From Candidatus Syntropharchaeum caldarium (GTDB taxonomy: Archaea; Halobacteriota; Syntropharchaeia; Syntropharchaeales; Syntropharchaeaceae), in assembly GCA_001766815.1 (NCBI GenBank), contig LYOS01000008.1, forward strand, positions 1-32,000: a stretch of DNA of 32,000 nucleotides, read 5' to 3'. The position numbers were made by a program, and so were the translations under genes. The notes below the pieces were generated by a model, which was given only the letters and a program-made list of their open reading frames with translations, had not been told where the DNA came from and did no database searches. Below, piece by piece: positions 1-21,527 of the stretch. How positions within the stretch are numbered: the stretch's first letter is position 1; every line of letters starts with the position of its first letter.

Positions 1-116
1 ATGTGGCCGCCTGGTGTCTCTTTCTCCTCGATCAACGTGACCGACGTCCCCCTGTCTGCTAAAGAGAGGGCAGCCATGATTCCAGCTATCCCACCACCGA
101 TTACAGCGACGGTCAT
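1..116 (-). CDS. N-terminal fragment of an HdrA-like FAD-dependent oxidoreductase; the gene continues beyond the window edge
   Basis: A minus-strand ATG at 116-114 opens MTVAVIGGGIAGIMAALSLADRGTSVTLIEEKETPGGH. This is a GxGxxG dinucleotide-binding N-terminus in the form I associate with heterodisulfide reductase subunit A. It starts 5 nt after the metF stop, so it is probably co-transcribed. Only 38 codons are visible. Confidence 0.5.
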   Translation of the reverse strand, partial: MTVAVIGGGIAGIMAALSLADRGTSVTLIEEKETPGGH

Positions 117-121
117 TTAGA

Positions 122-1057
122 TCACTTCTCAGCGCCTTCAATGATCGGTGCGATCACATCAGGGTAACCAACCGCCATTATGTGGCAGCCAGCACAGTTC
201 TTTTTCTTTCTTATCTCCTTCACAAAATTGACGAAGTAGTCGATATTGAATTCATCGATCTTTTTCTTGCGTTCAGCCTTGTCAGAGATCGCCTTGAATT
301 CCTTGAATGTCTTCAAAAACTCGGGTGGCACGGTAACACCTGATACGAACTTATCAAAGAACTCTGCCTGACCATAAGAACGGGGTGGGAAGATGCCGAT
401 AAATGTCGGTATACCGATGTGCTCAATTGATTCCAGATATGTAAGCGCGATATCCACATCAAATACAACCTGGGTCTGGATGAAATCAGCACCAACCTCC
501 GCCTTCCGCTCCATCTTCAGGACCTCAATCTCAAGCGGCTCCTGGTTCGGGTTTCCAGCAACTCCAATGTTGATCTCAGGCCTTGGTCCCTGCACCTCGT
601 TTCCAGAGAGGTCAGTTCCCTCATATACCATGTGATGGATCAGATCAACGAGCTGGGCCGAGTCAAGATCAAATACAGGCTTTGCGTCCGGGGTGTTTCC
701 CATGTGTGTGTGATCGCCTGTCAGGGCGAGGATATTCTTGAGACCAAAGGCAGCAGCGGCAAGGATATCTGATGCAAGTGCCAGTCTGTTCTTGTCAGCA
801 GTCCTTAGCTGATATACCATCTCAAGCCCCGAGTCACGCTGGATGATGAAGCTTGCAGCAAGGCTCGACATTGCGCTGAAGCTCTGGGGGTTATCGGTCA
901 CATTTGCGGCTGTGATCTTTCCGATCCCCTTCAGGGTCTTTGCCCATTCAACAACATCCCCTATCTCTGTGCTCAGGTTATGTGGCTCAAGCTCACCGGT
1001 ATATACAAATTCACCAGCCTTGATCTTCTTCATCAACTCTGAGAATGCCTCCCCCAT
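122..1057 (-). CDS. metF: Methylenetetrahydrofolate reductase family protein (MetF-type)
   Basis: 311-aa ORF with MTHFR-family blocks: NVTDNP, LRTADKNR, ILALTGDH, FIQTQVVFD. It lies 2 nt downstream of a MetV-type gene. Confidence 0.85.
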   Translation of the reverse strand: MGEAFSELMKKIKAGEFVYTGELEPHNLSTEIGDVVEWAKTLKGIGKITAANVTDNPQSFSAMSSLAASFIIQRDSGLEMVYQLRTADKNRLALASDILAAAAFGLKNILALTGDHTHMGNTPDAKPVFDLDSAQLVDLIHHMVYEGTDLSGNEVQGPRPEINIGVAGNPNQEPLEIEVLKMERKAEVGADFIQTQVVFDVDIALTYLESIEHIGIPTFIGIFPPRSYGQAEFFDKFVSGVTVPPEFLKTFKEFKAISDKAERKKKIDEFNIDYFVNFVKEIRKKKNCAGCHIMAVGYPDVIAPIIEGAEK

Positions 1058-1059: not shown

Positions 1060-1719
1060 CTATAACCTCCTCGGATTCATAGCAAGTGTCCGCTTCTTCG
1101 GTGGTCTATATTTCCTGAAAAGATCAAGTCGGTTAAGCTCTTTTGCTCGATGATAGATCAGATACCATGCACAGTCATTCTTTACCATCTCACCATTGAC
1201 CTCCATCGGAAGCTCGCACTTACCCTCAACACATCCTCCACAGGGTCCATTGAGAAGCCCTTTCGCGCATCGAGCCACCGGACAGATACCCCCCGTCTCT
1301 TCGAGAATACACTCACCACATGCAAGACACATCTCATACATCGGGCCCTGTCTGATCTCTTCAGAACCGATGAACATGGTATCCTGTGCCGGACGTGTCC
1401 AGATCTCAGGATAAACTTTGTTAAGTATCTGGACACCAACACCGCACGCAAGCGAGACCATACCATCGTAATCATTCAGTTGAACCCGGAGGTTTCCAAC
1501 CGATTCATCACAGCACTGTTTCACGATGGTTGTAAAACCAGTCTCAATCGGTTTGCCCTCCATCTTTGCCTTCATCTCAATAAGCTTTGCAAGTGTCTCC
1601 GCTTCTTTCAAGCCTCTTGGAGGCTGTGTGCAGCCATCACATCCCACAAAGAGGACTCTTTTGCAGTCTGCTATCGATGCATAGATTTCCTCTAAGGGTT
1701 TTTCCTTGGTTATTATCAT
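1060..1719 (-). CDS. metV: MTHFR C-terminal-domain / zinc-ribbon protein (MetV-type small subunit)
   Basis: Cys-rich hallmark CLACGECILEETGGICPVARCAKGLLNGPCGGCVEGKCE, plus VGCDGCTQPP. I prefer the ATG at 1719 (MIITKEKPLEE) over the ORF-track start at 1803, because the first 28 codons look non-coding. Confidence 0.8.
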   Translation of the reverse strand: MIITKEKPLEEIYASIADCKRVLFVGCDGCTQPPRGLKEAETLAKLIEMKAKMEGKPIETGFTTIVKQCCDESVGNLRVQLNDYDGMVSLACGVGVQILNKVYPEIWTRPAQDTMFIGSEEIRQGPMYEMCLACGECILEETGGICPVARCAKGLLNGPCGGCVEGKCELPMEVNGEMVKNDCAWYLIYHRAKELNRLDLFRKYRPPKKRTLAMNPRRL

Positions 1720-1868
1720 CCTGAATCGCCTCTCAATTATTGTATGATATGACCTTAAGCATATGCTGAATATATTGGTTGATATGATCCTCGATTTATA
1801 CACTATTTAAATTATTCGTTTTTATTTCAAGTGAAAAATATTTACAGAATAAATTGTTACAAATCGCA
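1720..1868. promoter_or_regulatory. AT-rich divergent intergenic/promoter region between metV and the mcrB-like gene
   Basis: 149 nt between divergent start codons. It holds several TATA-like boxes: TTTATACA ~1795, TATTTAAAT ~1804, AAAATATTTA ~1835. It also holds a perfect 10-bp palindrome AGCATATGCT (1758-1767) and the direct repeat TGATATGA (1745-1752 and 1780-1787). No transcription start can be assigned from sequence alone. Confidence 0.5.
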
Positions 1869-3254
1869 ATGTTTTTATATGCACAGGTTAAAACAGGCAA
1901 AGAGGTGACTTACTTGGTTAATAACGATGTTATAGACATTTACGCCGATGATGGGAAGGTTCTGGAAGAAAACATCCCACTGGAGGCTTTAAATCCATAC
2001 AAAAATCAGGCAATCCTCGATATACTTCAGACGATCAGGCGAACAGCACTGGTTGATATCTCGGCACTTGAAACAACGCTCAAGAAGGGGGAGGTTGGCG
2101 GTACGATGAATGTTGGAAGTGAGTGCCATATTCCTGGACGAGAGCTGGACCTACCACTTATGGATCGGATCGAAGAGATCAGAGAAAAAGTTAAAAAAAT
2201 GCTTGAGTTAACTCCAAACGATGATACACTGGTTGAAGTCGTTGATTCACTGATGGTAATCCAGATCCCGTCACGTTCATTTGCGATTGCAACCGACTCA
2301 TCCCAGGTTTATTTTAAACCTGCAATTGCGCTTATAGGTGCTATCTGTGACATCTTCGAGCTTGGTCCTTTTGACGGGCCTGAGATGGTGAAGGCTGCGG
2401 TTTTGGGGCGATATCCGCAGATGATCTCACCCAATGGAGTTATGTCCGCCATTTTATCATTCCCTACAACGATTGAAGGTGCGGGAAATGCGTATCGCAG
2501 CATAAAAGTGAACGACATTGTTGCGCTTGCCAATAAACGAACGTTTGATGCTGCGGCGCTGGGTTCAGTCTTTGAGCATGGTGCAGCCTTTGAGTCGGGC
2601 AACGCGATGGGAGCATACAGGCGGTACCACCTTCTTGGTATGGCATACCAGGGTTTCAACGCCGACAATATGGTCTGGGAGCTCCTGCGAGATCATGGGA
2701 AAGGAGGGCGAATCACCGATATTATCGACGATCTCGTTGAACGTGCCCTGAGGGATAGGGTTATTGAGGTTGAAGAGAAACTGCCATCGGGGTATACTCT
2801 CTATTCAACCCGCGATGCTGCACGCTGGAATGGTTATGCAGCAGCAGGACTGATGGCAGCAGCGATACACAATGCAGGTGTGATGCGATCTGGACAGGGC
2901 GCCCCATCAGCGATGCTCTTTTACAACGAACTGCTCACGTCCCAGACCGGGCTACCCGGGGTCGACTTCGGGAGGGCGCTTTCCACTTCAGTAGTATACA
3001 CATTCCTGACTCATAATACCTACGGTGGCGGTGAGCCAGGCATATTCTCTGCTGAACATCCTGCAACTCGCGGTTCTCGCGGTTTTATTATTCCCTGTGC
3101 AGCAGCTGCAATGTGTCTTGATGCTGGAACGATGATGTTCCCGGCAGAAGCAACTTCAGGAAAGATGTTCAAGCTCAGAGAGATCTTACCTGTTTTCAAA
3201 GACCCCGTAAAAAAAATTGCAGCAGCTGCAGCAGCAGTCTCAGGTGAGGTGTGA
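1869..3254 (+). CDS. mcrB: Methyl-coenzyme M reductase beta-subunit homolog (divergent; MCR/ACR family)
   Basis: Collinear with recalled canonical McrB:
- DIYADDGKVLEENIPLEALNPYKN (cf. [24 protein letters not shown])
- MVKAAVLGRYPQ
- YHLLGMAYQGFNADN
- WNGYAAAGLMAA
- TYGGGEPGIF
- GFIIPCAAAAMCLDAGT
- PAEATSG
The start is uncertain. The ATG at 1869 is given. TTG at 1914, preceded by GAGGTGA (1902-1908), would give an N-terminus of canonical length. The ORF track opens at TTG 1854. Confidence 0.9.
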   Translation: MFLYAQVKTGKEVTYLVNNDVIDIYADDGKVLEENIPLEALNPYKNQAILDILQTIRRTALVDISALETTLKKGEVGGTMNVGSECHIPGRELDLPLMDRIEEIREKVKKMLELTPNDDTLVEVVDSLMVIQIPSRSFAIATDSSQVYFKPAIALIGAICDIFELGPFDGPEMVKAAVLGRYPQMISPNGVMSAILSFPTTIEGAGNAYRSIKVNDIVALANKRTFDAAALGSVFEHGAAFESGNAMGAYRRYHLLGMAYQGFNADNMVWELLRDHGKGGRITDIIDDLVERALRDRVIEVEEKLPSGYTLYSTRDAARWNGYAAAGLMAAAIHNAGVMRSGQGAPSAMLFYNELLTSQTGLPGVDFGRALSTSVVYTFLTHNTYGGGEPGIFSAEHPATRGSRGFIIPCAAAAMCLDAGTMMFPAEATSGKMFKLREILPVFKDPVKKIAAAAAAVSGEV

Positions 3255-3257
3255 GAA

Positions 3258-4925
3258 ATGGATGAGAAGATACTTGACGACTTCAAGCGAATATTCAAGG
3301 AGGAAGATCCAACCAAAAGGGAGACCCAGTTCTATAACTTTGGCGGGAGAACGCAATCAAAGGCCAAGCGTGAATTCATCGAATCAGCAAAGCGCATCGC
3401 AGAAACGCGTGGTATTCCGGGTTATCAGGGAGATCGGGAGGATTTTGGTGTCCCGCTTGGATCGAGATATCTTGAGCCATATCATATCGCAGGAACAGAT
3501 ACGTTCTGTGAAATGGACGACATCCATCAGATCAACAATGCAGCAATCCAGCAGATGGGGGATGACATCAAGCGAACTGCGATAAACGGGCTTGACCTGC
3601 CGCACAGGGTGCTCCAGCAGAAGGTTGGTATAGCGGTCACACCTGAGACGATAAACCGCTACCTTGAAGCTGTAAATCACTCAATTGTTGGCGGGGCACT
3701 CGCACAGGAACATATGGCAGAGATAAATCCCAACATGAGCAAGGATGGTTATGCAAAGATTATAACAGGCGATGACGAGCTCGTGGACAGAATCGATAGT
3801 CGATTTGTGATTGATATCAACAAGGAATACCCCAAAGAAATGGCAGAGAAGCTTAAAAGCAAGATCGGTAATCATCTCTATCAGGTCGCAAGGATACCCA
3901 CAATTGGGGTCAGGATCGCTGATGGTTCAGTTGTCCATCGCTGGAATGGAAATCAGAGCGCACTCGCATTTGTTTCAACATACAACCTCGGAGGCGGCTC
4001 GATACTCGCTGAATTTTCACTCACCGTGAAGCACATGGCATACATGCTCATCGGAACGCCCACATGGCCCCGTAGAGGTCCAAGAGGTGCGAACGAACCG
4101 ATTGGAATACCAAATGGATATATCGGTGACTTCTGTCAGGCAGATGCGGTGAACGACGACCCTGTTCATTACTGTATGGAGGCCATGGCAGTAAGCGGCG
4201 CTATCTATGGTCTGTACTGGTTTAGTAGCTATGTGGTTGGTGGGATCGGCGGTCCAAATACCTTTGCGTCACCCTTCACAAGCGAGCTCCTGACTGATTT
4301 TACATACCATATCTCAGACTGGGTGAAGGAGAAGTACGGCGGATATGTTGCCTGTAAACCATCTTTTGATGTGATAAGGGAGGTTACAGAAGAGGTGAAC
4401 TTCTATGCAATGGAGCAGTACGATAAGTACCCCCTTCTCCTTGAGCACCACTGGGGAGGCGTCATCAGAATCCTGAACCTCAATGCTGCATCTGCTATTG
4501 GGGTCGGGTTTGCAACAGGCAACTCAACAGCAGCCAGTATCGCGAACTATTACTCAGGCGGATTCCTGCAGAAGGAGGCATGGGGAAGGAATAATGTTGG
4601 AGTGGGTGATGCTGCAGAACAGCTCAATATCCCAAACAGCGTTTCTATACGACCAGAAGAGGGCGTAATTCCGGAACTGAAGAGTCCAAACATCCCCGAA
4701 GATTCATATTCAGCATCGCACTTTGTCTCGCTTCCTGCAGCATCTTTCTCGGCACATCGTGCGAGGGGGGATGCATGGTGCTTGAGTCCACTTGTGAAGG
4801 TTGCGTTTGCAGACCCCTCACTCACCTTCGACTTCAAGCATGTGCGTGAAGAGATCGCAAAGGGTGCACGTCGTGAGTTTGTACCATCTGGAATGCGCGA
4901 TCCAATTACACCGGAGGGGCGATAA
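3258..4925 (+). CDS. mcrA: Methyl-coenzyme M reductase alpha-subunit homolog, highly divergent (candidate alkyl-CoM reductase alpha)
   Basis: 555 aa. The N-terminal half tracks canonical McrA: FYNFGG, RGIPGY, NNAAIQQMGDDIKRT, VTPETINRYLEAVNH, AQEHM, FVIDINKEYP, ARIPTI. C-terminal landmarks are retained: PRGANEP, SSYVVGGIG, DFTYH, FATGN, SIRPEEG, ARGDAWCLSPLVKVAFAD. Hallmark motifs are replaced (see findings). The ATG lies 3 nt after the mcrB stop, with GGTGAGGTG upstream. Confidence 0.9.
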   Translation: MDEKILDDFKRIFKEEDPTKRETQFYNFGGRTQSKAKREFIESAKRIAETRGIPGYQGDREDFGVPLGSRYLEPYHIAGTDTFCEMDDIHQINNAAIQQMGDDIKRTAINGLDLPHRVLQQKVGIAVTPETINRYLEAVNHSIVGGALAQEHMAEINPNMSKDGYAKIITGDDELVDRIDSRFVIDINKEYPKEMAEKLKSKIGNHLYQVARIPTIGVRIADGSVVHRWNGNQSALAFVSTYNLGGGSILAEFSLTVKHMAYMLIGTPTWPRRGPRGANEPIGIPNGYIGDFCQADAVNDDPVHYCMEAMAVSGAIYGLYWFSSYVVGGIGGPNTFASPFTSELLTDFTYHISDWVKEKYGGYVACKPSFDVIREVTEEVNFYAMEQYDKYPLLLEHHWGGVIRILNLNAASAIGVGFATGNSTAASIANYYSGGFLQKEAWGRNNVGVGDAAEQLNIPNSVSIRPEEGVIPELKSPNIPEDSYSASHFVSLPAASFSAHRARGDAWCLSPLVKVAFADPSLTFDFKHVREEIAKGARREFVPSGMRDPITPEGR

Positions 4926-4927
4926 GA

Positions 4928-5704
4928 ATGGATGAAAAGAAAGCAAACAGGTATCCGGGTAATGATCCTGTTGGAGCACGGAGAAGGGAACTGCTCAGTC
5001 CAGAATCGAAGTTCAAACGTCTCAGAGAGATCTCTGATAATGATTTAGTCCTGCTGCTTGGGCACAGAAACCCCGGTGAGGAGTACGGCTCAGCACACCC
5101 GCCACTTGATGAACTGGAACAAAAAGATGACCCGATAGCAGATCTCATTGAACCGTCGGCTGGAGCGAGAGCAGGTGACCGGATCAAGTACCTTCAGATG
5201 ACAGATTCTGTCTACTACTCACCTTCAGCACCCACCTTCAGGGGCAGGATGTATCACGTCAGATACCCGGGGATCGATACAATTGTCTATTCTGGAAGAC
5301 AGCTCATGGAAACCCGGGAGCGAGATCTTGAGCTCTATACACGGGAGTTGATGGAGACCGAATTATTTGACGCTGCAAGGACATCGATGCGCGCAATAAC
5401 CGTGCACGGATCATCATTGCGACTTGATGAGAACGGGCTGATGTTTGATGCAAGGCGAAGAACAAGGTATGATCCCGAGACAGGTGAAGTGAGTTATGTG
5501 AAGAACCAGATGGCAATACCGATGGATCGAGCTGTAAATCTTGGAAAGCCGATGGACGAGGAAGAACTGATCTCAATCTCGGTAAGGTATGGTGGGGCAA
5601 GTATACCTTACAGAGATGCAAAAGAGCTCTGGAAGCTCACAGGCAAGATTCTTGAGCAGCATGTTGTGGGTGGCTTCAATCCCACAAAAATTGAGAGACG
5701 ATAG
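4928..5704 (+). CDS. mcrG: Methyl-coenzyme M reductase gamma-subunit homolog
   Basis: 258 aa with canonical McrG blocks: KLREISDNDLVLLLGHRNPGEEYGSAHPPL, GARAGDRIKYLQMTDS, SGRQLMETRERDLE, VHGSSLRLDENGLMFD. The ATG lies 2 nt after the alpha stop, with GGAGGGG upstream. Confidence 0.9.
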   Translation: MDEKKANRYPGNDPVGARRRELLSPESKFKRLREISDNDLVLLLGHRNPGEEYGSAHPPLDELEQKDDPIADLIEPSAGARAGDRIKYLQMTDSVYYSPSAPTFRGRMYHVRYPGIDTIVYSGRQLMETRERDLELYTRELMETELFDAARTSMRAITVHGSSLRLDENGLMFDARRRTRYDPETGEVSYVKNQMAIPMDRAVNLGKPMDEEELISISVRYGGASIPYRDAKELWKLTGKILEQHVVGGFNPTKIERR

Positions 5705-5717: not shown

Positions 5718-6035
5718 TTACTCCTCAACCTCTTCTTCATTTTTGCTTGAATATCTTAAGTACCAGTCTAAAAACTCTGTATAGATGACGACAGATAAGA
5801 ACCCCGCCCATAGGGCGAGGAGTATGTGAATATTGCATATCGAGACCACTCCATTCATCGGTGAAAAGAGCTCAAATGCAAAGAATTCAGCCATCTTTTC
5901 GGGTGTTATGATGGTACCAATAAGTGGTATAAGGATCATTAGCGCAGTACCAAGCCGTGAAGAGAGGTATATGATTACAAGCGCTATTATAGCCGTATAG
6001 ACGATGAAGAACAGTAACGAGAAGATCAGATTCAT
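5718..6035 (-). CDS. Small integral membrane protein (about 3 TM helices), paralog of the N-terminal domain of the upstream gene
   Basis: The 105-aa ORF aligns along its length with residues 1-100 of ORF 6036-7112: LIPLIGTIITPEKMAEFFAFELF / LVPLIGVMIAPEEMAGFLSYELF, and NIHILLALWAGFLSVVIYTEFLDWY / NIHILLAFWAAFLSIVIYTEFLGWY. Its start codon directly abuts the upstream gene's stop. I recognise no family. Confidence 0.6.
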   Translation of the reverse strand: MNLIFSLLFFIVYTAIIALVIIYLSSRLGTALMILIPLIGTIITPEKMAEFFAFELFSPMNGVVSICNIHILLALWAGFLSVVIYTEFLDWYLRYSSKNEEEVEE

Positions 6036-7112
6036 TCAGACAACACCCCACGTCTTATTTCTTTCGATGTAATGTGAGCAAAGATCCAGAATATCGTTTT
6101 TTAGATCCATCGCCCTATCTCTCCCAATGAGCAGACTTGCAGAGCGACCTGCACACTCGGCAAGTTTCTCCAGATCGGTGAGGGCGAGTGAGTCAGGTGT
6201 TATGTCAAGATGGTCTTTGAGCTGGCTTTCAAGGAAGTTTTCCCCTTCGTTCATGTATTTTGCAATGATTGCAAGCAGATCCTGGTATATATCAATCATC
6301 TGGCAGAGTTGATCCAGTGCTGGATCACCCGGTGTGGATGCAGTGGACGGTAGTTCATTTTTCCATTCATGCCACTCCTCTACAATCTTTTTCATCTCCT
6401 CGAGGCCATCCAGGTTGGTACCGCCGGGTATGCTAAGCGCAAAATCCGATTGCTCTTCGGTTTCAATCTCTTTCTCCTCGTTCTTCCTTATTGTAAAGCT
6501 TGTTTTAGCCACCGGTCCTGAACTGAAGCCTGGTGGCGATGTGAAGAGACACAGCTCGCCTCTTCCAGCAACTTCGGGTCTTATAACCGCGATCTCATGC
6601 TCGATATCGCACCTGATCCATTCATCACCGATGGTATCAACAGGCACATCATCTATCTTCGCTTCAATACGAACAAGTACCGCCTTGAACAGTCCAGATT
6701 TGATGATGATCCTGCAGATGAGTGGTTCTCCAACTTCAAGCGAATCATTGTCCACTTCAATACGCGCCTCAAAATTCTCATCTTCAGGAAACTCTATATC
6801 ACTCGATCCAGATCCAGAGGCGGAAATGTGCGCCATATACCAGCCCAAAAACTCGGTATAGATGACAATAGATAAAAATGCAGCCCAGAACGCAAGAAGT
6901 ATGTGAATGTTACGCATCGAGATCGCGCCATCCATGATTGCAAAAAGTTCATATGAGAGGAATCCCGCCATCTCTTCGGGTGCGATCATAACTCCGATGA
7001 GTGGTACCAGCAACATGAAAAGAATGCCTGCAAATGATGAGACATAGATGATGATAAACCCAATAAAAAGAAGATACAGGATCAGGAGAAATAGCGAGAG
7101 TAGAAGATCCAT
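6036..7112 (-). CDS. Membrane protein: N-terminal 3-TM domain plus an acidic soluble C-terminal region, function unknown
   Basis: 358-aa ORF. It has a hydrophobic N-terminus (paralogous to 5718-6035), an SGSGSS linker, a beta-rich segment, then a helical acidic segment. Its start lies 1 nt from the stop of the upstream surface-protein gene. Confidence 0.6.
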   Translation of the reverse strand: MDLLLSLFLLILYLLFIGFIIIYVSSFAGILFMLLVPLIGVMIAPEEMAGFLSYELFAIMDGAISMRNIHILLAFWAAFLSIVIYTEFLGWYMAHISASGSGSSDIEFPEDENFEARIEVDNDSLEVGEPLICRIIIKSGLFKAVLVRIEAKIDDVPVDTIGDEWIRCDIEHEIAVIRPEVAGRGELCLFTSPPGFSSGPVAKTSFTIRKNEEKEIETEEQSDFALSIPGGTNLDGLEEMKKIVEEWHEWKNELPSTASTPGDPALDQLCQMIDIYQDLLAIIAKYMNEGENFLESQLKDHLDITPDSLALTDLEKLAECAGRSASLLIGRDRAMDLKNDILDLCSHYIERNKTWGVV

Positions 7113-7113: not shown

Positions 7114-8316
7114 TCAATCCCTCCCTCTTCGTTTTATTATGAGAGCGATCACACCAAGCACCCCTCCTATTGTCAGTCCCAGTATGATGAACGATCCAGT
7201 GAGAAACGCACCCATCACACGTCTTGTGAGTGTGACAGCAGGTGTTACATCGGCAACATCGGGTGTCTTGCTGGTTGTGGCAGAGGATTCAGGTTCATTC
7301 GCTATCGTCGGCGTCGAGGTCTCGTTCGGCTCGGGGGGAGCGGTCTCTTCTCTCAGCGTGAGTGTGAGTGGTGATACTAATGTGAAGTTGGCCGAGGCGG
7401 TTGTATTCGTGAAGTGTACCACGGCTGTATAGTTTATGAAGGTGACCTGCCCTCTTCCATCGTGGATGGTTGCTGCAGGAAGATTGAACTCTGCCTTTCC
7501 ATCCTGATCAGTTGATGCATTCCCTATCTGCTCACCATCAGCATATATCAAAACTTCTATGCCTGCCATGGGTGTATCTGCGGGGTTTGTGACCCGTGCT
7601 GTGAATGTGTTGTAGGGTGTGAGTGGCAAATTGCTGTGCAGGGTGAAGGCAGACCAGTCAAGATAGACGTCCCGCATCTTAATCAGCGCATCACTCGTCT
7701 CAAAGAGGTCTCCGACTGTAACGTTTCCAAGCAGCGTTGTCTTACCGATACTAAGGTACTCAGCACTCAAGAACTCAATCTCTCGAGAATCGATCGTTGA
7801 CCCTTCAATACGGGTGAAAATAGATTTAAGATATGTATGTGCCCCCTCGATCGTTGAATTCTGGAGTTCGATCAGCCTCCCTTCTCCTGAGATATTGATG
7901 GATGAGATTGTCGATGATACAGACCTTATCTCAGATGCATGAAGTGCAATCTCCTCTGCTATGAGATCTGAGTTATCAAAAGTAACCGCCCGCACCGAAT
8001 CCCCCCTGATCACAGAGGTATTCATTCTCGAAGCGTTCAAAAATAGTGTGGAGTTATCTCCCATCAAAACCTCTGTGCTATCGCCTTTCCAGCGCAATAT
8101 GCTTGTATTATCCAGTATGAGTGTCGCATCAGGTTCAATCACTATGCTTTTGCCTATAAAAAGTGTTTCCTCTTTTATCGTCATAGTTTTACCTTCTTCG
8201 ACTGTGAGCGTCTGGATACCTTTCCCAAGCGCCGACTCACTTAAACATATAACGCAAATTAGCATAATCAAGAATAATAAGTATAGATAATGAGACATTT
8301 TTTCACTAATACGCAT
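7114..8316 (-). CDS. Secreted/anchored cell-surface protein (beta-helix-like repeats, Ig-like domain, Thr/Pro linker, C-terminal TM anchor)
   Basis: Domains in order:
- N-terminal signal-like hydrophobic segment (YLYLLFLIMLICVICLSESALG)
- repetitive N/S/T-rich strands typical of parallel beta-helix proteins
- a segment resembling CarboxypepD_reg/Ig folds (VTNPADTPMAGIEVLIYADGEQIGNASTDQDGKAEF)
- a T/P/E-rich linker
- a C-terminal helix followed by KRRGRD
The protein carries many N-x-S/T sequons. Confidence 0.6.
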   Translation of the reverse strand: MRISEKMSHYLYLLFLIMLICVICLSESALGKGIQTLTVEEGKTMTIKEETLFIGKSIVIEPDATLILDNTSILRWKGDSTEVLMGDNSTLFLNASRMNTSVIRGDSVRAVTFDNSDLIAEEIALHASEIRSVSSTISSINISGEGRLIELQNSTIEGAHTYLKSIFTRIEGSTIDSREIEFLSAEYLSIGKTTLLGNVTVGDLFETSDALIKMRDVYLDWSAFTLHSNLPLTPYNTFTARVTNPADTPMAGIEVLIYADGEQIGNASTDQDGKAEFNLPAATIHDGRGQVTFINYTAVVHFTNTTASANFTLVSPLTLTLREETAPPEPNETSTPTIANEPESSATTSKTPDVADVTPAVTLTRRVMGAFLTGSFIILGLTIGGVLGVIALIIKRRGRD

Positions 8317-8353: not shown

Positions 8354-9124
8354 TTAGCGAATACGAATGAACTTACAATCCGCCCCATAAATCACTTTTT
8401 CATAAATTTCAAGAATTTGAGGCACTTCAAGTTCATCGGGGCGCATATCAAGTAATTTTTCGAGACCTGTGCCAACAGGATCAATTCCCGCCATCCTGAG
8501 CGTCTTTTTTACATGTTTTCTGCGGTTTGAGAATAGCCATCTTACAAAATCTAAAAAGAGGGCTTTATCCTTGATATTATACTTGTTGTGGGGTGTGAGT
8601 CGGATGATGGCTGAATGAACAGCTGGCACAGGATAGAATGCACTCTTTGGAACCTTTTCAAGCACATCAATATCTGAAAACGCCTGAACAGAGACTGCAA
8701 TCCTCCCATACCTCTTTTCTCCTGGTTTTGCTCTCATTCGCTGAATAAACTCTGACTGATAGATCAAAATTCCAAGTTTAAACTCTGATCTGAGGAGTTT
8801 TAGCGTAATATTGGATGAAATTGAATAGGGCAGATTTGATATGACCTTATCAAATTCAGGAAGCTCGATCTTAAGCGCATTTGCGTTTATAATGAATGCA
8901 CCTGGACATCTCGCCTTAATCATTCTTGATAGCTCAGGATCAATCTCGATCGCGTACACCGTATCCGACCGTTCAATAAGGCGAGCTGTAAGATTTCCAG
9001 TTCCCGCACCGATCTCAAGTACCCGATCCTTTCTCGCAACTTCACCGTACTCAACGATCCGATCCAGAATCGCATCATCAAGAAGGGTATGCTGTCCCAG
9101 CTTAGATCTCCTCGTCCTGGACAT
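8354..9124 (-). CDS. rsmA: 16S rRNA (adenine-N6,N6)-dimethyltransferase RsmA/KsgA (archaeal Dim1 type)
   Basis: LGQHTLLD, the SAM-binding VLEIGAGTGNLT, and the NLPYSISS motif. I prefer the start at MSRTRRSKLGQH (9124) over the ORF-track start at 9187. Confidence 0.85.
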   Translation of the reverse strand: MSRTRRSKLGQHTLLDDAILDRIVEYGEVARKDRVLEIGAGTGNLTARLIERSDTVYAIEIDPELSRMIKARCPGAFIINANALKIELPEFDKVISNLPYSISSNITLKLLRSEFKLGILIYQSEFIQRMRAKPGEKRYGRIAVSVQAFSDIDVLEKVPKSAFYPVPAVHSAIIRLTPHNKYNIKDKALFLDFVRWLFSNRRKHVKKTLRMAGIDPVGTGLEKLLDMRPDELEVPQILEIYEKVIYGADCKFIRIR

Positions 9125-10598
9125 AGCTCCTTCTAAGCCTGATCGCAAGTTCTGCTTTTGCAAGTTCAACTCCAAGATAACCTGCATGATCGATCATCGA
9201 GATTTTGCCTGTTTTAGCAAGATATGCGATAATTTCCTTCGCCTTCAGACCCCGTATAATCTCAACTCTCCCATCTGGCATGTTGTGCTCAAGATATATC
9301 ATTCCTTTCTGCACCGCTATCCTGAAGTAGCCGAGTGGATCTGATTTCCACTCCTGCTTTTCTGTAACTGTTACCACATCATCCAGCTCTTCGATCAGGA
9401 CACCCTCGCGTTTACGCTTCTCTTTTGCAACAAAGAGGTCGATTCCAAGATCTTTTGGTGGAGACTGTCTTTTTGATGCGAGCTGCATCATCATCGATGC
9501 TTTGACAAGTTCATTTACGCTTCCCATGGTTTTTCTACTTGCCTCTGGTGCAAAGAGTATTCCAATGCCGAGTTCCATTCCTATTCCTGCAAGAACAGCA
9601 TTTATCCCGACAGAATCTGCATCAATAAGTTCTGTTACATTCCCAACCCCAAAAAATAGCGGTGTTGATTTATCGATCTCTCTGAAACGGTAGTAGTCAT
9701 GGATCGAGCGCGCGATGCCCTCTCCAACCGGTGAAAGGATCGGATCTGCAACTATCTTATCAATTCCAAGCGATCGTGCTATATCAATTACCTCAAAAAG
9801 TTCATCAACGCCACTTCTTGATATTACAACCGCAGATATCTCTGCTTTTGCGATATCTTCTCCGACTGCTTCGATATTCTCTCTGTCAAGGCTCAGGATA
9901 AGATCAGCGCCCGAACTGATTCCTGCCTCAATGAGCGCTGGCTCCATTGTATCAAGACTTACAGGAAGCTCTGTCACGGATTTTGCAACCGCAAGGATGC
10001 GTTTTACATCGTCCACTTCTGCATCAAGTGTGACACCAAGATCGATGATATCGGCGCCCTCTGATTCAAAGTATCTGATCTCCTGCTCAAGTTCCTCATC
10101 TCGGAGTAACGTTGCATCCACGATCTCGGCCATCACCTTCATCGAGGTATTTCCTCCGATCTTAACACCCCTTATCATGAATTCAGGTACACCCGTAGCT
10201 TCAAGCTCGAGAAGCTCTTTCTTTATTGTTTCAAAGTCTCTTTCAGATGACCTGCGCGCTGGAACAGAGTCTGAAAGTTCAATTTCATCAATATTCGCGA
10301 GCAGATCTGGTAAATCATGGGCGTATCTTGTACCAAGTCTTATTTTAACTCCAAACTCTCTCTCCAGCTCACTAAAATTGGATGTGACGTTTCCAGGGAG
10401 CAGTATCAAATCGTAATCTGAGAGATCAATCTTTTTAAGCAGTCTGTAAAGTATTTGGGGTGTCAGGAGCGCTGCAACATCCACATCTGCAACCGCTACC
10501 TCAGCCAGATCTCCAACATAGTTCCTGACAATCTCGGTTGCTCGTCTTCCTGTTATGACAAGGGTTTTCATGACATCATGTCGTTGCTGATCGCTCAT
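9102..10598 (-). CDS. Dihydropteroate synthase-like protein (archaeal pterin-binding family linked to tetrahydromethanopterin biosynthesis)
   Basis: 498 aa. The central region has pterin-binding TIM-barrel-like blocks: GADIIDLG, DTMEPALIEAG, ADLILS, DPILSP, GVGNVTEL. There are extra N- and C-terminal domains, as in the long archaeal DHPS-like proteins. GGAAGG lies upstream of the ATG at 10598. Confidence 0.6.
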   Translation of the reverse strand: MSDQQRHDVMKTLVITGRRATEIVRNYVGDLAEVAVADVDVAALLTPQILYRLLKKIDLSDYDLILLPGNVTSNFSELEREFGVKIRLGTRYAHDLPDLLANIDEIELSDSVPARRSSERDFETIKKELLELEATGVPEFMIRGVKIGGNTSMKVMAEIVDATLLRDEELEQEIRYFESEGADIIDLGVTLDAEVDDVKRILAVAKSVTELPVSLDTMEPALIEAGISSGADLILSLDRENIEAVGEDIAKAEISAVVISRSGVDELFEVIDIARSLGIDKIVADPILSPVGEGIARSIHDYYRFREIDKSTPLFFGVGNVTELIDADSVGINAVLAGIGMELGIGILFAPEASRKTMGSVNELVKASMMMQLASKRQSPPKDLGIDLFVAKEKRKREGVLIEELDDVVTVTEKQEWKSDPLGYFRIAVQKGMIYLEHNMPDGRVEIIRGLKAKEIIAYLAKTGKISMIDHAGYLGVELAKAELAIRLRRSYVQDEEI

Positions 10599-11037
10599 CG
10601 ACCTTCCATCTTGACAGGAAATAATCCATCAATCTTTTGTTTTTATACAACTCCCTTATGTACTCATCTATCGCATGCTGAAAGTCATCGAAATACCGGG
10701 AGACATAAAAATTTATAAAACCATCAGATCTGAACTCAATCCCGCAATCAGTGGGTGCAGGCTCTCTCATCCATACTTTTGCCAGTCCTTTGATGAAATA
10801 TTCGTGTACCAGCCCACATCTCACCCGTTCATATACATCATCGCCATGTTCATCCAGCAACCTGATATATTCTTCACCCAGCTTTTTCAAGCCATGATTG
10901 TAGTTCTTTTTTGCCTGTCCTTCCCTGATCTTGCACCGATACAGCCCACCAAGAAACTCTGTGTAAGCAGAGAGCGCCAGCGCAACCAGATAATTCGCCT
11001 CTCCGTCAATCGCAGCATTAATATCCTTGACCATCAA
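10576..11037 (-). CDS. Hypothetical protein
   Basis: 153-aa ORF of protein-like composition in a gap not covered by other genes. I recognise no family. A TATA-like TTTTTATACC lies about 50 nt upstream on the minus strand. Confidence 0.45.
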   Translation of the reverse strand: MMVKDINAAIDGEANYLVALALSAYTEFLGGLYRCKIREGQAKKNYNHGLKKLGEEYIRLLDEHGDDVYERVRCGLVHEYFIKGLAKVWMREPAPTDCGIEFRSDGFINFYVSRYFDDFQHAIDEYIRELYKNKRLMDYFLSRWKVDERSATT

Positions 11038-11108
11038 ATTCTTAAATTTGCGGATCTTCTCTTCTAACTCTGAGATTCTACCACCCGTGCATCAGGGTAT
11101 AAAAACAA

Positions 11109-12305
11109 TTAAAACGTCGTAATCTTCCCTTCTGATACAAGTTCTGTGATCTCTGTAACTCGCTCAAGCCAATCATCGATGATCCTGGTTATCGCAGGCG
11201 CAATATCATCAACACTCACCCCATTCTTCGGGATGATCTGGGCGTTTGCAACCAGTGGATTATCGATCGGCTGACCAATCTGTGAGAGAATTCTGACTGA
11301 TATCTCCTGAAGGTCTGCGATCTTCTCTATAGCCTCATTTGCGATCTGGGTTGTGAGCAGGTTGTAGATCTTTCCAACGTGGTTCACCGGGTTCTTACCT
11401 GATGTTGCCTCGAGACTCATCGATCTGTTTGGTGTGATGAGTCCATTCGCACGATTTCCTCTCCCAACTGAACCATCATCCCCCATCTCTGCTGAGAGCC
11501 CTGTCACGGTGAGGTATATTGATCCATTCTCAATGTCATCCCCAACGTTTACAAATACCTCAATTTCACGATCTGTGTATGATGACGCAACATCCTTTGC
11601 AAAGGTGGCAATTTCATCCCGTATCGCGACGTAATGATCGATATCATCGACATATCTCGAGACAAAAGCATCTGCGATCGTGACAGTAATCTTATCCTTC
11701 ACTCTCAGTCCCATCACCTTTATATCCTCGCCTACCGCCTTCTCGCGCTTACTGAGATTATTCACCATCTCTCTTTCGATGTTGTAGACGATATTCTCAA
11801 CCTCAGAGAAAGGTGCATGCCCCACACCAAAGGAGGTGTCATTTGCAAGCGGTACCCTGTCTCTGGAGTCAAATATCTCAACAAGATCGTATGAACCTTC
11901 CCCGATCTTACAGTCGATCACCACATCCGTCTCAGGGTTGAGGTTATGGATACTCTCCTGAAGATATGATTTTGCAGCCCTCAATGCGATGACATCGACA
12001 GGCACCTCTTCGTCACCAGCCCATTTTGTCGCTCTTCCATTTAGAAGAATATAGCTAGGGGTGATGATCTCACCACCACCAAAGGCTGGTCTGGACCTGC
12101 CTGCAACAATCGCCACCTCATCGGTGTTGTGGTGGAGTATCATGCCATATCGCTTCTTGTACTCATTGCACAGCGCACGGCTTACAGCTTCTGCAATCCC
12201 ATCGCAGATCGAATCTGGGTGTCCAATACCTTTTCTCTCAACAAGCTCGATCTCCTGAAGTTCGATCGGAAGCTGATGTATCGCCTCAACCTGGATATTT
12301 CGCAT
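11109..12305 (-). CDS. mat: Archaeal-type S-adenosylmethionine synthetase
   Basis: 398 aa with the archaeal MAT signature [17 protein letters not shown] and ILHHNTDEV. Length and layout are typical of the MJ1208 family. Confidence 0.9.
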
Positions 12306-12327
12306 ATCATTTCTCCCATTCTATAAT

Positions 12328-12918
12328 TCAACTTCGATATTCGTCCTTAAGTGGCTTTGGAGGCAGTGGAAATATGCTTCTGAAAGTTTCTGGGTTTTTG
12401 ACCATCTCCTGGAGTTGATTTTTCGTCTCATCCACAAGCACATCCACATACATCATCTCCACAAAGTTTTGACAGGCATCTGCAAGCTCGATAAGACTCT
12501 TGACGTCCTGTTCCATCTGCTCGAATGAACAGGCGAATGGACACGAATTTCTGATTTTATTGATCACATCGAGAAATTGGCGCATCTCCTCCTTCCGATC
12601 AATCGAGTCAAACTGCTGCTGAAAGTGTGATTTAAGTTCTTCAGTATCAAGTTCATTTGCGATTGATATCGGTTTTATACCATCGAACGTTGCAAATATC
12701 AATGGTATGTTGAGGAGGTACTCAATATACGCAGTGTCGATGCTATCTCTTGCACCCATCGCGCACGCAATCCGCTGGTCCTCGACATCCTCATCATCCA
12801 TCTCCGTCATCTTCCTGCACATATTACAGTACTGCCAGAATCGGCTGATAGACTGGTAAAACGATATGACACCTTCGAGTGGTAGTTCTGCCTTAAGTTC
12901 CATATAAACAAAGATCAT
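12328..12918 (-). CDS. Hypothetical protein (acidic, helical)
   Basis: 196-aa ORF between the SAM synthetase and SAH hydrolase genes on the same strand. I recognise no family. The start could be the second ATG (MELKAEL, 12903). Confidence 0.45.
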   Translation of the reverse strand: MIFVYMELKAELPLEGVISFYQSISRFWQYCNMCRKMTEMDDEDVEDQRIACAMGARDSIDTAYIEYLLNIPLIFATFDGIKPISIANELDTEELKSHFQQQFDSIDRKEEMRQFLDVINKIRNSCPFACSFEQMEQDVKSLIELADACQNFVEMMYVDVLVDETKNQLQEMVKNPETFRSIFPLPPKPLKDEYRS

Positions 12919-12960
12919 TCTTTACCTTTAAAGGCTTTTGGATTGAGTGTGCGCTACCCT

Positions 12961-14211
12961 TCACGTTCCAAGTTCCCATGATGAGAGGTACCGCTCCTGT
13001 TCTTCTGTCAGCGTCTCAATCTCAATCCCCATCGATTTGAGCTTGAGGGCCGCAACACGCTCATCGATCTCCCTCGGTACGCCAGTGACTTTTCTTTCAC
13101 GCAGATCGGAGTTTATGATGTATTCAACCGCAAGTGCCTGATTCGCAAAACTCATATCCATCACACCGGGTGGATGACCGTACGCTGCCGCCAGATTGAT
13201 AAGTCTCCCTTCACTCAGGAGATATATCCGCCTGCCATCAGCAAGCGTGTACTCATCAACCTCTTCTTTGACGCGTTTCTTGCTGATTGCAAGCTTTTCG
13301 AGGTCATCAATTGCAATTTCGACATTGAAGTGCCCCGAATTTGCAAGAACTGCCTGGTCCTGCATCAACTCGAAATGCTCACCCCGTATGACCGATGTAT
13401 CACCTGTCACCGTGATGAAGATCTCACCCGTCTTTGCAGCATCATGCATCGGCATCACCTGGTAACCATCCATCACAGCTTCAAGGGCCTTTCTCGGGTT
13501 GACCTCAACCACGATCACATTTGCACCCAGTCCTCTGGCACGCATCGCAACACCCCTGCCGCACCAGCCATATCCGACAACCACCACTTTTCTGCCTGCA
13601 AACAGGAGATTTGTAGCATTCATAATCCCATGCAGTGTCGACTGACCCGTTCCATAACGATTATCAAACATCATCTTTGTTTCAGCATCATTCACCGCGA
13701 TTACCGGAAAAGCGAGTTTGCCAGACTTTTCAAGCGCTCTCAGACGGATCACCCCGGTGGTGGTCTCCTCGCACGCACCCTTTATCGAGTTCATGAGATC
13801 GGGGTAGTGCTCGTGTATATGTGCTATTGTATCTGCCCCATCATCAAGTACAACATCAGGCATGATATCAAGTGCCGCCTCAAGACACGCATAGTACTCG
13901 TCATCGTTTTCCCTGAATGCATAAACCCAGATACCACTTCTGGCGAGCGCTGCAGCAACATCATCCTGTGTGCTCAATGGATTCGATCCGGCAAGTGCGA
14001 TCTCTGCCCCCCCTGCTTTCAGTGTCTTGATGAGGTTTGCTGTCTCAACCGTGACATGCAGACACGCTGTGATCTTCACGCCATCGAGTGGCTTTGTCTC
14101 TTCAAACCGCGATTTTATGAGTTCAAGCACCGGCATGTGCCGCCTTGCCCATTCAATCCGCTCATCCCCAGTATCCGCAAGCTGCAGGTCTTTGACGATA
14201 GATTCTTTCAT
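12961..14211 (-). CDS. ahcY: Adenosylhomocysteinase (S-adenosyl- or S-inosyl-L-homocysteine hydrolase)
   Basis: [36 protein letters not shown], the NAD fold [12 protein letters not shown], and GHFNVEI. The ORF-track start at 14280 is a TTG. I prefer the ATG at 14211 (MKESIVKDL, with GAGGGA upstream), which gives a typical 416 aa. The ATG at 14238 is an alternative. Confidence 0.88.
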
Positions 14212-14314
14212 CGATATTCCCTCATCGTAATTCTCCATCTGCGTTAATAACCTTAACTCCTTCAAATTTCGATCATTCAAGCAATTTTAAATACCTGCCA
14301 GTTAAATCACGTCT

Positions 14315-17801: not shown

Positions 17802-18242
17802 TCAATCTAATGTTTTTGATGTTGTCGTGAGTTTGACGTGTTTAACGCCTTTTAACGACATGATCTCTTCTGTTATCTGTTTGATCTCGCGTATGTTTCC
17901 GCGTGCAAGCAGTATCTCGATGCAGTTGTCATGATCAAGATGTACGTGGAGTGAGGTTCCAAGCAATCCAATTGAGTTGTGCTGGATATCAAGGAGTGTA
18001 TCAGTCAGCCCACGCTGATTGTGGTTGTAGGTGATTGTTATAACCGCAACTTTTTCACCCTCTTCTTCCCCCATCCATTCGTATTCTACGATATAATTTC
18101 TGATCGCATCTCGTATTCCTTCGGATCTCGACGAGTATCCCCTCTTCGTTATTATTTCATCAAAACGATTGAGGAGATTGTCTGGAAGCGAAACACCAAT
18201 ACGCATAAGTTCCTGGTCTATATTAAAACCCCCTTCCTTCAA
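17802..18242 (-). CDS. nikR: Nickel-responsive transcriptional regulator NikR
   Basis: An N-terminal ribbon-helix-helix (RIGVSLPDNLLNRFDEIITKRGYSSRSEGIRDAIRNYI) is followed by a C-terminal metal-binding domain with His-rich blocks (ITYNHN, LHVHLDHDNCIE). The start could also be ATG 18206. Confidence 0.85.
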   Translation of the reverse strand: MKEGGFNIDQELMRIGVSLPDNLLNRFDEIITKRGYSSRSEGIRDAIRNYIVEYEWMGEEEGEKVAVITITYNHNQRGLTDTLLDIQHNSIGLLGTSLHVHLDHDNCIEILLARGNIREIKQITEEIMSLKGVKHVKLTTTSKTLD

Positions 18243-18289: not shown

Positions 18290-18808
18290 TCATTCTATTA
18301 CTTTTGCCTTGCCTGAATGTATTACTGAGACGTCACCAACGTGGCATACTGTACAATCCTTGCCCCTTGGTTCGTGGATTTTCACCAGGTTTCCTTCAAC
18401 AGACGTTGTTGCATCTGGGTATCCATGGCAGTTCTCGCAGACCGTATAAGTTCCAACTGGCTGGGGTATGGTTGGTGGTGTACCATGACAGGTCTTACAC
18501 GGGACTATTGATTCCGGATGAAGCCCGTGAACATCCCCTACGGCACCACCCGGATTTTTATGGCACTGTGTACACTTATCTCCACCGTGCTGGTGTGCAT
18601 CCAGGTCTGCTGCGTTCTTGTGGCACATCAGGCAGCTCATTTCAGGCGTCGTTACAGGTGCCTGTGTCACAATCGGTGTTGGTGTTGGCGTGGGTTGTGT
18701 TGCTATCGGCGTGGGAGTAGCTTCCTCTCCTCCTTCCAGACAGCCTGCAACCCCCACAACAACAAGGACCAACGCTAATGTCACAAACAGATATAATTTC
18801 TTAACCAT
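18290..18808 (-). CDS. Pentaheme c-type cytochrome, probable lipoprotein with Thr/Pro-rich stalk
   Basis: Five CxxCH motifs fall within about 115 residues: CLMCH, CTQCH, CKTCH, CENCH, CTVCH. Six additional His are available as distal ligands. The N-terminus is a signal peptide ending in the lipobox-like VAGC, followed by TPTPIATQPTPTPTPIVTQAPVTTP. AGGTGA precedes the ATG. Confidence 0.85.
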   Translation of the reverse strand: MVKKLYLFVTLALVLVVVGVAGCLEGGEEATPTPIATQPTPTPTPIVTQAPVTTPEMSCLMCHKNAADLDAHQHGGDKCTQCHKNPGGAVGDVHGLHPESIVPCKTCHGTPPTIPQPVGTYTVCENCHGYPDATTSVEGNLVKIHEPRGKDCTVCHVGDVSVIHSGKAKVIE

Positions 18809-18957
18809 CTATTTCACCTTCTCTGATAGTTATATAACCGAGCTTTTATCGATCTTTTAGCTAATAAAGCTTTCGATAACGAGCGGTTTCAATCGAATCG
18901 ATACAGGAACGATTTATGATCGATTGCATCATCATTTTGATTATGATCGAGACTCGA

Positions 18958-19028
18958 TGCGCTGACCGGGATTCGAACCCGGGCTGTGGGCTTGGAAGGC
19001 CCAAGTCATGCCTCTAGACCATCAGCGC
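18958..19028 (-). tRNA. tRNA-Gly (anticodon UCC)
   Basis: The minus-strand sequence GCGCTGATGGTCTAGAGGCATGACTTGGGCCTTCCAAGCCCACAGCCCGGGTTCGAATCCCGGTCAGCGC folds by hand as a cloverleaf:
- 7-bp acceptor stem GCGCTGA/TCAGCGC
- anticodon stem TGGGC/GCCCA
- anticodon loop CTTCCAA
- T arm CCGGG-TTCGAAT-CCCGG
No CCA is encoded. Confidence 0.9.
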
Positions 19029-21500: not shown

Positions 21501-21527
21501 CTATCGTTAATTCTATTATATATGAAT

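Follow-up and report, generated by a model that had tools for sequence, protein, structure and literature searches.

The 32,000-nucleotide stretch of DNA analysed here, positions 1 to 32,000 of contig LYOS01000008.1 (hereafter the window; all coordinates are window positions), carries near its start an acrBAG (mcrBAG) operon. This operon encodes one of the four alkyl-coenzyme M reductases (ACRs) in Candidatus (Ca.) Syntrophoarchaeum caldarius, and its sequence has been public since 2016. The alpha subunit that it encodes is 100% identical to GenBank OFV67100.1 of that species (NCBI name: methyl-CoM reductase alpha subunit; CoM, coenzyme M), the gene of which sits on a 41.6-kb contig, and the same locus with the same neighbour genes was recovered in the Logan assembly of run SRR3669912 (L001). 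According to reviews and later papers, the description of the four divergent mcr/acr sets of Ca. S. caldarius dates from 2016, and both Syntrophoarchaeum genomes hold four divergent homologs of methyl-coenzyme M reductase (MCR) each, with all four in operons in S. caldarius. A first-pass annotation of the window, made from its letters, had left a choice between a candidate ACR and a new MCR lineage. The second option is not supported: already published are the sequence itself, its position in the Acr group and the B-A-G gene order without mcrC or mcrD.

The data make it probable that this is an ACR that activates C3-C4 alkanes. The three proteins would assemble into an alpha2-beta2-gamma2 nickel-F430 enzyme which, working in the oxidative direction, would turn a C3-C4 alkane and the heterodisulfide CoM-S-S-CoB (CoB, coenzyme B) into alkyl-S-CoM and HS-CoB. 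With the formation of alkyl-S-CoM, the anaerobic oxidation of propane/butane would begin. The alkyl group would next pass through beta-oxidation and a Wood-Ljungdahl pathway working in reverse, with the adjoining MetF/MetV in place of Mer, and the electrons would be exported to a sulfate-reducing partner.

Organization of the acrBAG operon

Three open reading frames (ORFs) on the plus strand, at 1854..3254, 3258..4925 and 4928..5704, encode full-length homologs of McrB, McrA and McrG in the order B-A-G. The beta ORF matched the Pfam domains MCR_beta_N (147 bits) and MCR_beta (311 bits), the alpha ORF matched MCR_alpha_N (323 bits) and MCR_alpha (105 bits), and the gamma ORF matched MCR_gamma (301 bits). 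All five MCR domains lay far over their gathering cut-offs, with full-length coverage and E-values of 1e-30 to 1e-96; a search with profiles of the MCR families had been suggested as a check in the first-pass annotation. The elements of the operon are:

1902..1908, plus strand: Shine-Dalgarno-like GAGGTGA for the beta TTG start, 5 nt upstream of 1914
1914..3254, plus strand: acrB/mcrB, beta subunit, 446 aa from the most likely start (TTG 1914), with MCR_beta_N and MCR_beta
3243..3251, plus strand: Shine-Dalgarno-like GGTGAGGTG for the alpha start, within the 3' end of the beta gene, read from the sequence
3258..4925, plus strand: acrA/mcrA, alpha (catalytic) subunit, 555 aa, assigned by Pfam and identical to OFV67100.1
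4913..4919, plus strand: Shine-Dalgarno-like GGAGGGG for the gamma start, within the 3' end of the alpha gene, read from the sequence
4928..5704, plus strand: acrG/mcrG, gamma subunit, 258 aa, with Pfam MCR_gamma

At the junction between beta and alpha, GGTGAGGTG (3243-3251) is followed by TGA (3252-3254), gaa and the ATG of alpha (3258), which leaves a gap of 3 nt. Between alpha and gamma, GGAGGGG (4913-4919) precedes TAA (4923-4925), ga and the ATG of gamma (4928), leaving a gap of 2 nt. ORFs, Pfam matches and junction reading together thus bear out the earlier description of coupled full-length B-A-G ORFs with 3- and 2-nt gaps and Shine-Dalgarno-like elements. For the beta gene, the longest ORF opens at 1854, and the gene as called in the database opens at ATG 1869 (461 aa). 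The start is most likely TTG 1914 rather than either of these, because GAGGTGA lies 5 nt upstream of it, because the ortholog in a Syntrophoarchaeum sp. (L002) has an identical GAGGTGA and then a start codon at the homologous position, and because the first 24 residues of the long ORF lie outside the Pfam match, which begins at residue 25.

We scanned the window's likely coding ORFs (105 aa or longer) with Pfam or NCBIfam, leaving out overlapping antisense and shorter ORFs. Among the scanned ORFs we found no MCR_C, MCR_D or AtwA-like/A2-type ATPase and no hydrogenase, in agreement with the first-pass annotation, which had listed mcrC, mcrD, atwA and a hydrogenase as absent from the 32 kb. This holds for the window and not genome-wide: Boyd et al. 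(2019) described mcrC and mcrD homologs with nearest relatives in Syntrophoarchaeum, so that other parts of the genome do carry the accessory genes. Three ORFs at 26279..29633 have mcr-like sizes (554, 256 and 307 aa) and were considered as a second mcr set; they were rejected, being NAD synthase, an archaeal prepilin peptidase and SecF.

The alpha subunit is placed among alkyl-CoM reductases

The window alpha is 80% identical to its S. butanivorans ortholog OFV65745.1, 58% to proteins of Alkanophaga liquidiphilum/volatiphilum, 57% to the S. butanivorans paralog OFV66176.1, about 52% to a 'Halobacteriota' group and about 51% to Archaeoglobaceae sequences. One Archaeoglobi McrA was found closest to a S. 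caldarius McrA (52%) by Boyd et al. (2019). An exhaustive HMMER search of 1.84 billion representative proteins returned no unknown close lineage, and the window alpha fell in the cluster of the S. butanivorans ortholog; McrA-type proteins made up about a dozen full-length clusters at 50% identity in this search, which limits the taxa that the tree could draw from it. OFV67100 is present in the mcrA/AcrA alignment behind Fig. 3a of Zehnle et al. (2023), beside the Alkanophaga acrA_2 sequences that these authors put in the Acr branch. A full-text literature search for OFV67100, OFV65745 and OFV66176 gave no matches, the accessions occurring only in that supplementary alignment.

Profile scores set two of the subunits apart from canonical MCR. 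The alpha subunit reached 549.3 bits on TIGR03256, under the NCBIfam equivalog cut-off of 767.75, and beta reached 440.8 bits on TIGR03257, under its cut-off of 516.25. Gamma was the only subunit to pass, with 288.2 bits on TIGR03259 against a cut-off of 172.1. The alpha subunit was 39-46% identical to canonical McrAs, which are mutually 55-65% identical.

For phylogeny we used a neighbour-joining tree with Kimura-corrected distances (50 sequences, 545 columns, 300 bootstraps; the ethyl-CoM reductase, ECR, was left out). The window alpha joined OFV65745 with 100% support, the Syntrophoarchaeum/Alkanophaga core was supported at 80% (98% with P0010 included), and the full clade of Syntrophoarchaeum, Alkanophaga, 'Halobacteriota', Archaeoglobaceae and the window alpha at 100%. 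The canonical clade, comprising methanogens and the type of anaerobic methanotrophic archaea 1 (ANME-1), had 100% support with the window alpha outside it, and so did a clade of group d/Helarchaeota ACRs. The window alpha thus groups, at 98-100% support, with Acrs from alkane oxidisers in culture, namely S. butanivorans OFV65745/OFV66176 and Alkanophaga acrA_2. A position inside the canonical clades had been named beforehand as the outcome that would speak against an ACR, and the tree gave the opposite. The placement supports the view that the window enzyme would be an alkyl-CoM reductase rather than a methane MCR.

Several database McrA-like proteins (P0023, P0024, P0047, P0133, P0134 and P0136/P0098) lack the canonical F330, Y333 and FYGYD-loop and form separate clades. 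They are labelled 'Methanospirareceae', 'Syntropharchaeia', 'Methanosuratus', or not at all. There are thus more MCR-like lineages outside the canonical type, and some belong to taxa commonly held to be methane-cycling.

An AlphaFold2 model of the alpha monomer (pLDDT 72.8, pTM 0.78, with pLDDT <50 in loops 268-281 and 440-469) matched all solved full-length MCR and ECR alpha chains in Foldseek with TM scores of 0.79-0.82, and so has the MCR alpha fold. No solved structure is close to the window alpha. The best matches in both sequence and fold were methanogen MCR II/III (544 bits, 46-47% identity, TM 0.82), followed by ECR (381 bits, 36% identity, TM 0.80), and ANME-1 MCR scored lowest (355 bits). 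The comparison with ECR uses phmmer and Foldseek scores and the literature: P0139, tried as an ECR proxy from PDB alignments, is a different, very divergent type with canonical MCR as its best match, and ECR is thus absent from the residue table.

The higher score to methanogen enzymes than to ECR (46-47% against 36% identity) would be expected if this were a methane-metabolising MCR, methanogenic or methanotrophic, that is divergent merely as a deep lineage. Such an enzyme would also keep the axial Gln147, the CoB/CoM-anchoring residues and beta Tyr367, as is the case here, and methanogenesis marker proteins 6 and 8 are encoded in the window. We nevertheless regard this explanation as highly improbable: the window alpha lies outside the fully supported canonical clade, alpha and beta stay under their equivalog cut-offs, and positions 330, 332, 333, the 443-446 loop, 450, 481 and 482 are all altered though every canonical MCR examined keeps them, apart from Tyr/Phe exchanges at 444 and 446. 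According to the literature, moreover, the host culture does not oxidise methane and Syntrophoarchaeum genomes are without mtr.

An ethane-specific ECR of the Ethanoperedens/Argoarchaeum type is effectively refuted, although a divergent MCR in a syntrophic relative of ANME archaea could suggest one and ECR, the only structurally characterised ACR, is detectably homologous. The window alpha has 555 aa and aligns nearly end-to-end with canonical MCR alpha without large insertions, whereas ECR alpha has 595 aa and ethanotroph-specific insertions; its axial ligand is Gln, against Met in Ethanoperedens ECR; identity to ECR is only 36%; and the culture, according to the review literature, does not oxidise ethane.

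Active-site residues and a proposed enlarged pocket

Residues are numbered as in M. marburgensis MCR I, whose alpha chain was rebuilt from the PDB alignment and checked at known positions. The alpha subunit keeps Q147 (the F430 axial ligand), R225, K256, H257, R270 and R271, beta keeps F361, H364 and Y367, and gamma keeps R120, so that the axial ligand and the CoM- and CoB-anchoring residues are all retained across the three subunits. The pocket is another matter. In alpha we observed M324V, F330G, Q332N, Y333T, Q400I, F443V, Y444G, G445V and Y446G, further D450E, C452L, M480Y, N481S and V482A, and a one-residue deletion in loop 239-246, a single deletion that Lemaire and Wagner (2022) tied to the open cleft of their ACR models. 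The changes in beta are F362L and I366T, and that in gamma is L117Y.

All canonical MCRs that we tabulated, the ANME-1 type included, keep F330, Q332, Y333, F443, G445, D450, N481 and V482, with conservative Tyr/Phe exchanges at 444 and 446. Q400, C452 and M480 vary in one or two canonical sequences each, Q400 being Ala or Val in ANME-1. The window alpha deviates at each of these canonical pocket and modification-site positions, whereas conservation of the active-site residues had been set beforehand as an argument against an ACR. Together with the tree and the sub-cut-off alpha and beta scores, these changes support the earlier suggestion of a substrate other than methyl-CoM. That suggestion had been accompanied by the remark that the C-terminal half of alpha is much more divergent, which is only weakly true as a statement on overall identity: the N-terminal half is 45-50% and the C-terminal half 32-42% identical to canonical McrA, a modest drop. 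What does stand is that the active-site positions differ strongly and that most of them lie in the C-terminal half.

Retention of the anchors combined with replacement of bulky, pocket-closing residues by small ones is the pattern expected for a larger alkyl group, and we infer that the widened pocket would take a multi-carbon alkyl group. In gamma, Tyr117 was present in all non-canonical sets compared (the B-A-G clade, the Syntrophoarchaeum B-G-A set and Helarchaeota) and not in canonical, Methanosuratincola or Nezhaarchaeota sequences; it could compensate for the loss of alpha Tyr333.

The B-A-G order is a trait of the subclade

Among 80 named reference loci, the B-A-G order was found in the Syntrophoarchaeum sp. 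ortholog (L002), Alkanophaga liquidiphilum (L003), the S. butanivorans OFV66176 set (L004) and an Archaeoglobaceae metagenome-assembled genome (MAG; L006). A second Syntrophoarchaeum set is arranged B-G-A (L036, L076) and Helarchaeota loci A...B-G, while canonical orders were BDCGA in 32 loci, BDGA in 16 and BGA in 11. The window operon, B-A-G without C or D, follows none of the canonical orders (mcrBDCGA, BDGA, BGA). Beta and gamma identities order the loci as alpha does, and the three genes were therefore inherited together. The comparison of operon order called for in the first-pass annotation thus shows B-A-G to be a trait of the whole subclade, and Shao et al. (2022) have reported for alkane oxidisers that the genes run mcrBAG and that mcrD is lacking.

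In two loci the arrangement was B-A. One, from a Halobacteriota MAG of a tar biofilm with a 52% identical alpha (L007:4576-7629), has no gamma gene within 5.5 kb downstream, and in the other (L005) the contig ends just past alpha.

Selection, expression and the role of this paralog

All three subunits are under strong purifying selection: relative to the L002 ortholog, the ratio of nonsynonymous to synonymous substitution rates (dN/dS) was 0.11 for beta, 0.07 for alpha and 0.12 for gamma, with dS near saturation. The intact coupled ORFs, the low dN/dS and a residue signature kept across genera argue against a decaying paralog. Still, the locus could be a silent or decaying copy from duplication or horizontal transfer that has no present catalytic role, and to this the loss of Tyr333, Gly445, Gln400 and Cys452 (catalytic or modified in canonical MCR), the lack of mcrC, mcrD or atwA nearby among the scanned ORFs and the weak expression of the Alkanophaga homolog lend some colour. 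We consider it very unlikely, given three tightly coupled ORFs each with a Shine-Dalgarno element, dN/dS values of 0.07-0.12, at least four lineages that share the residue pattern and gene order, and the complete set of cofactor- and coenzyme-binding residues. In addition, the review literature describes most of the four Syntrophoarchaeum MCR homologs as abundant in transcriptomes and proteomes.

The physiology of the host is in line with an alkane-activating enzyme. The review literature reports for the Butane50 enrichment that butyl- and propyl-CoM are formed, that bromoethanesulfonate (BES) inhibits, and that methane, ethane, pentane and hexane are not oxidised. An alkane-oxidising archaeon that exports electrons had been proposed for the window from its letters, with the genus of the actual source, Ca. 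Syntrophoarchaeum caldarius, named as an example.

Several observations weigh against an active C3-C4 alkane-activating role of this particular paralog, or against its firm placement. The most expressed paralog of S. butanivorans is, according to the review literature, OFV67021 of 'group d', which is only 39-40% identical to the window alpha. The closest Alkanophaga homolog by sequence comparison, acrA_2, is transcribed at ~0.4-3x the genome mean, and acrA_3, at about 5-30x, is dominant on every substrate tested (Zehnle et al., 2023). Ca. S. caldarius itself makes up about 2% of cells in the butane culture according to the literature. On the structural side, the monomer model is poorly confident precisely at the active-site loops, so that loop geometry carries no conclusion; the only solved ACR is the Ethanoperedens ECR, 36% identical to the window alpha, with none solved in its subclade. 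Neither Tyr333 nor the thioglycine position G445 is conserved, and with both held important in canonical MCR, the chemistry could differ in detail. Finally, support for a sister grouping between the group d/Helarchaeota ACRs and the window clade amounts to only 57%, the value for deep branching among the non-canonical clades in our neighbour-joining tree.

The expression data are what one would expect if the enzyme were a functional ACR but an accessory isoenzyme, specialised unlike the dominant group d enzyme and not the main butane activator. It might for example serve propane rather than butane, 1- versus 2-alkyl-CoM attack, or other alkane concentrations in the manner of MCR I/MCR II. This is a possibility that we take seriously but do not favour, and it refines rather than contradicts the C3-C4 alkane reading. 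Syntrophoarchaeum has four paralogs and Alkanophaga three, each a distinct clade conserved across genera; all three subunits of the window set are under purifying selection; residue 330 is G/A/P in the B-A-G clade versus F in group d; and acrA_2 is transcribed near the genome mean in Alkanophaga, with acrA_3 dominant on every substrate. The literature contains the hypothesis that the copies serve different alkane lengths or conditions, and the authors of the Alkanophaga study leave the functions of the weakly expressed Acrs open. Against it stands the range of the culture, only propane and butane, which gives little room for four specialisations.

A more far-reaching reading, which we hold to be doubtful, is that the B-A-G clade as a whole (the window operon, the S. 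butanivorans ortholog, OFV66176, Alkanophaga acrA_2 and the Archaeoglobaceae and 'Halobacteriota' relatives) would constitute a functionally distinct ACR class, its pocket giving a substrate or regiochemistry unlike that of group d, such as propane, secondary-carbon attack or the alkane-forming direction. A pocket without Phe330, Tyr333 and the thioglycine-loop motif, and with a compensating gamma Leu117->Tyr, may provide the basis for this, and the enzyme of the clade might work with a differently modified F430. Between these readings, activation of C3-C4 alkanes by one of four S. caldarius ACRs is the one we retain; in vivo catalytic use of this paralog, rather than of the other three, is presumed here.

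Neighbouring genes in the window

The other features of the window are:

1..116, minus strand: HdrA-kind FAD-binding protein, N-terminal 38 codons (translation MTVAVIGGGIAGIMAALSLADRG...), cut by the window edge
122..1057, minus strand: metF-like methylene-tetrahydrofolate reductase gene (Pfam MTHFR)
1060..1803, minus strand: metV-like gene (Pfam PF12225), divergent from the acr operon
9102..10598, minus strand: dihydropteroate-synthase-like protein (TIGR00284; pterin-binding and DUF4346 domain)
11109..12305, minus strand: archaeal S-adenosylmethionine (SAM) synthetase
12961..14280, minus strand: S-adenosylhomocysteine hydrolase
17802..18242, minus strand: NikR-type nickel-responsive regulator, adjoining the five-heme cytochrome
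18290..18808, minus strand: secreted cytochrome, 172 aa, five CxxCH motifs
18956..19029, minus strand: tRNA-Gly(TCC), after the cytochrome gene
21522..23015, plus strand: cysteinyl-tRNA synthetase (cysS), longest ORF, family match from residue 41
21528..21599, plus strand: tRNA-Cys(GCA), directly upstream of cysS and overlapping the 5' end of its longest ORF
23017..23886, plus strand: methanogenesis marker 8 (TIGR03275)
31067..31504, plus strand: methanogenesis marker 6 (TIGR03272)

MetF and MetV, proposed as neighbours in the first-pass annotation, were confirmed by Pfam; the metV start is probably an internal Met near 1719, judging from the translation. For HdrA, also described as lying next door, the window shows the 38 N-terminal codons at its edge, 5 nt downstream of metF on the minus strand, and nothing more. 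MetFV-HdrA-MvhD clusters occur in both Syntrophoarchaeum genomes (Chadwick et al., 2022), and metF has been proposed in the literature as a Mer substitute in Syntrophoarchaeia. The multiheme cytochrome that the same annotation mentioned is indeed present and can be specified as the secreted 172-aa protein with five CxxCH motifs.

Convergent with acrG are three genes without a confident family (5718..6035, 6036..7112 and 7114..8316, all on the minus strand). Two of the products, one of 105 aa and one of 358 aa, resemble each other in their hydrophobic N-terminal segments, which in the longer protein means its first ~100 residues. The third has 400 aa, matches Ig-like/CarboxypepD_reg weakly and carries a membrane anchor at its C-terminus. 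In the independent Logan assembly (L001), too, the operon is followed by these three genes. Further on, the minus-strand cluster at 9102..14280 looks like a neighbourhood of methyl-cycle and pterin biosynthesis. The family match of the cysteinyl-tRNA synthetase begins only at residue 41, so its real start is downstream of tRNA-Cys, and the tRNA and its cognate synthetase are adjacent. Methanogenesis markers 6 and 8 sit here in the window of a non-methanogen; TIGR03275 is one of a small number of orthologous clusters listed as exclusive to Polytropus, Bathyarchaeota and Syntrophoarchaeum (Boyd et al., 2019).

Comparison with known systems

Alkyl-CoM reductases catalyse the entry reaction of anaerobic archaeal oxidation of propane, butane and longer alkanes, and are relevant to carbon cycling at hydrocarbon seeps and to possible biofuel chemistry. 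The locus sharpens the question of why Syntrophoarchaeum keeps four paralogs under purifying selection, and of the role and substrate of this paralog group. The signature of the group consists of small residues at alpha 330/333, a missing thioglycine motif and a Tyr at position 117 of gamma. Since this signature and the B-A-G order recur in Syntrophoarchaeum, Alkanophaga and Archaeoglobaceae relatives, the group is a well-defined target for heterologous expression and structural work.

The closest known system is the OFV65745.1 set of S. butanivorans, another species of the genus that lives in the same butane-oxidising enrichment culture. Its alpha, 80% identical, has the same G330, N332, T333, I400, S481 and A482 and is non-canonical at all other changed positions, where it differs slightly, for instance in having I instead of V at 445 and D instead of E at 450. 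The B-A-G order of this set can be inferred from L002, the Syntrophoarchaeum sp. locus with an 81% identical alpha. Next comes the acrA_2 cluster of Alkanophaga (A. liquidiphilum MDF2955404.1, A. volatiphilum MDF2957193.1), which belongs to the same well-supported subclade and has a 58% identical alpha in a B-A-G operon (L003). It shares the small residues at 330 and 333 and Ile at 400, but reads FGSG at 443-446 where the window alpha reads VGVG, and its host oxidises C5-C14 alkanes at 70 degrees C.

The group d ACR of S. butanivorans (OFV67021.1 with OFV66073.1 and OFV66072.1) comes from the same organism group, has the same presumed reaction and, like the window alpha, lacks one residue in loop 239-246, has Ile at 400 and shows a remodelled loop at 443-452. 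It differs by its low identity (39-40%), an alpha of 623 aa with an N-terminal extension, retention of Phe330, an alpha gene located apart from beta and gamma, and its separate clade with Helarchaeota. The ECR of Ca. Ethanoperedens thermophilum (PDB 7B1S) belongs to the same alpha2-beta2-gamma2 F430 family and matches the window alpha model with a TM of 0.80. The literature describes for it ethanotroph-specific insertions in alpha, beta and gamma that build a gas tunnel, a Met axial ligand (Ethanoperedens) and a dimethylated F430; the sequence features among these, the insertions and the Met ligand, are missing from the window alpha, which is thus not of the ECR subtype.

MCR I/II of M. marburgensis (PDB 3POT, 5A8R) resembles the window enzyme in domain architecture, fold, axial Gln147, the CoB-binding Arg/Lys, the positions of methyl-His257 and methyl-Arg271, beta Tyr367 and gamma Arg120. 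It is only 43-47% identical, the window alpha has other residues in place of its pocket residues F330, Y333, F443, Y444, G445, Y446, N481 and V482 and at its modification sites Q400, D450 and C452, and the canonical operon is B-D-C-G-A, against B-A-G without mcrC or mcrD in the window.

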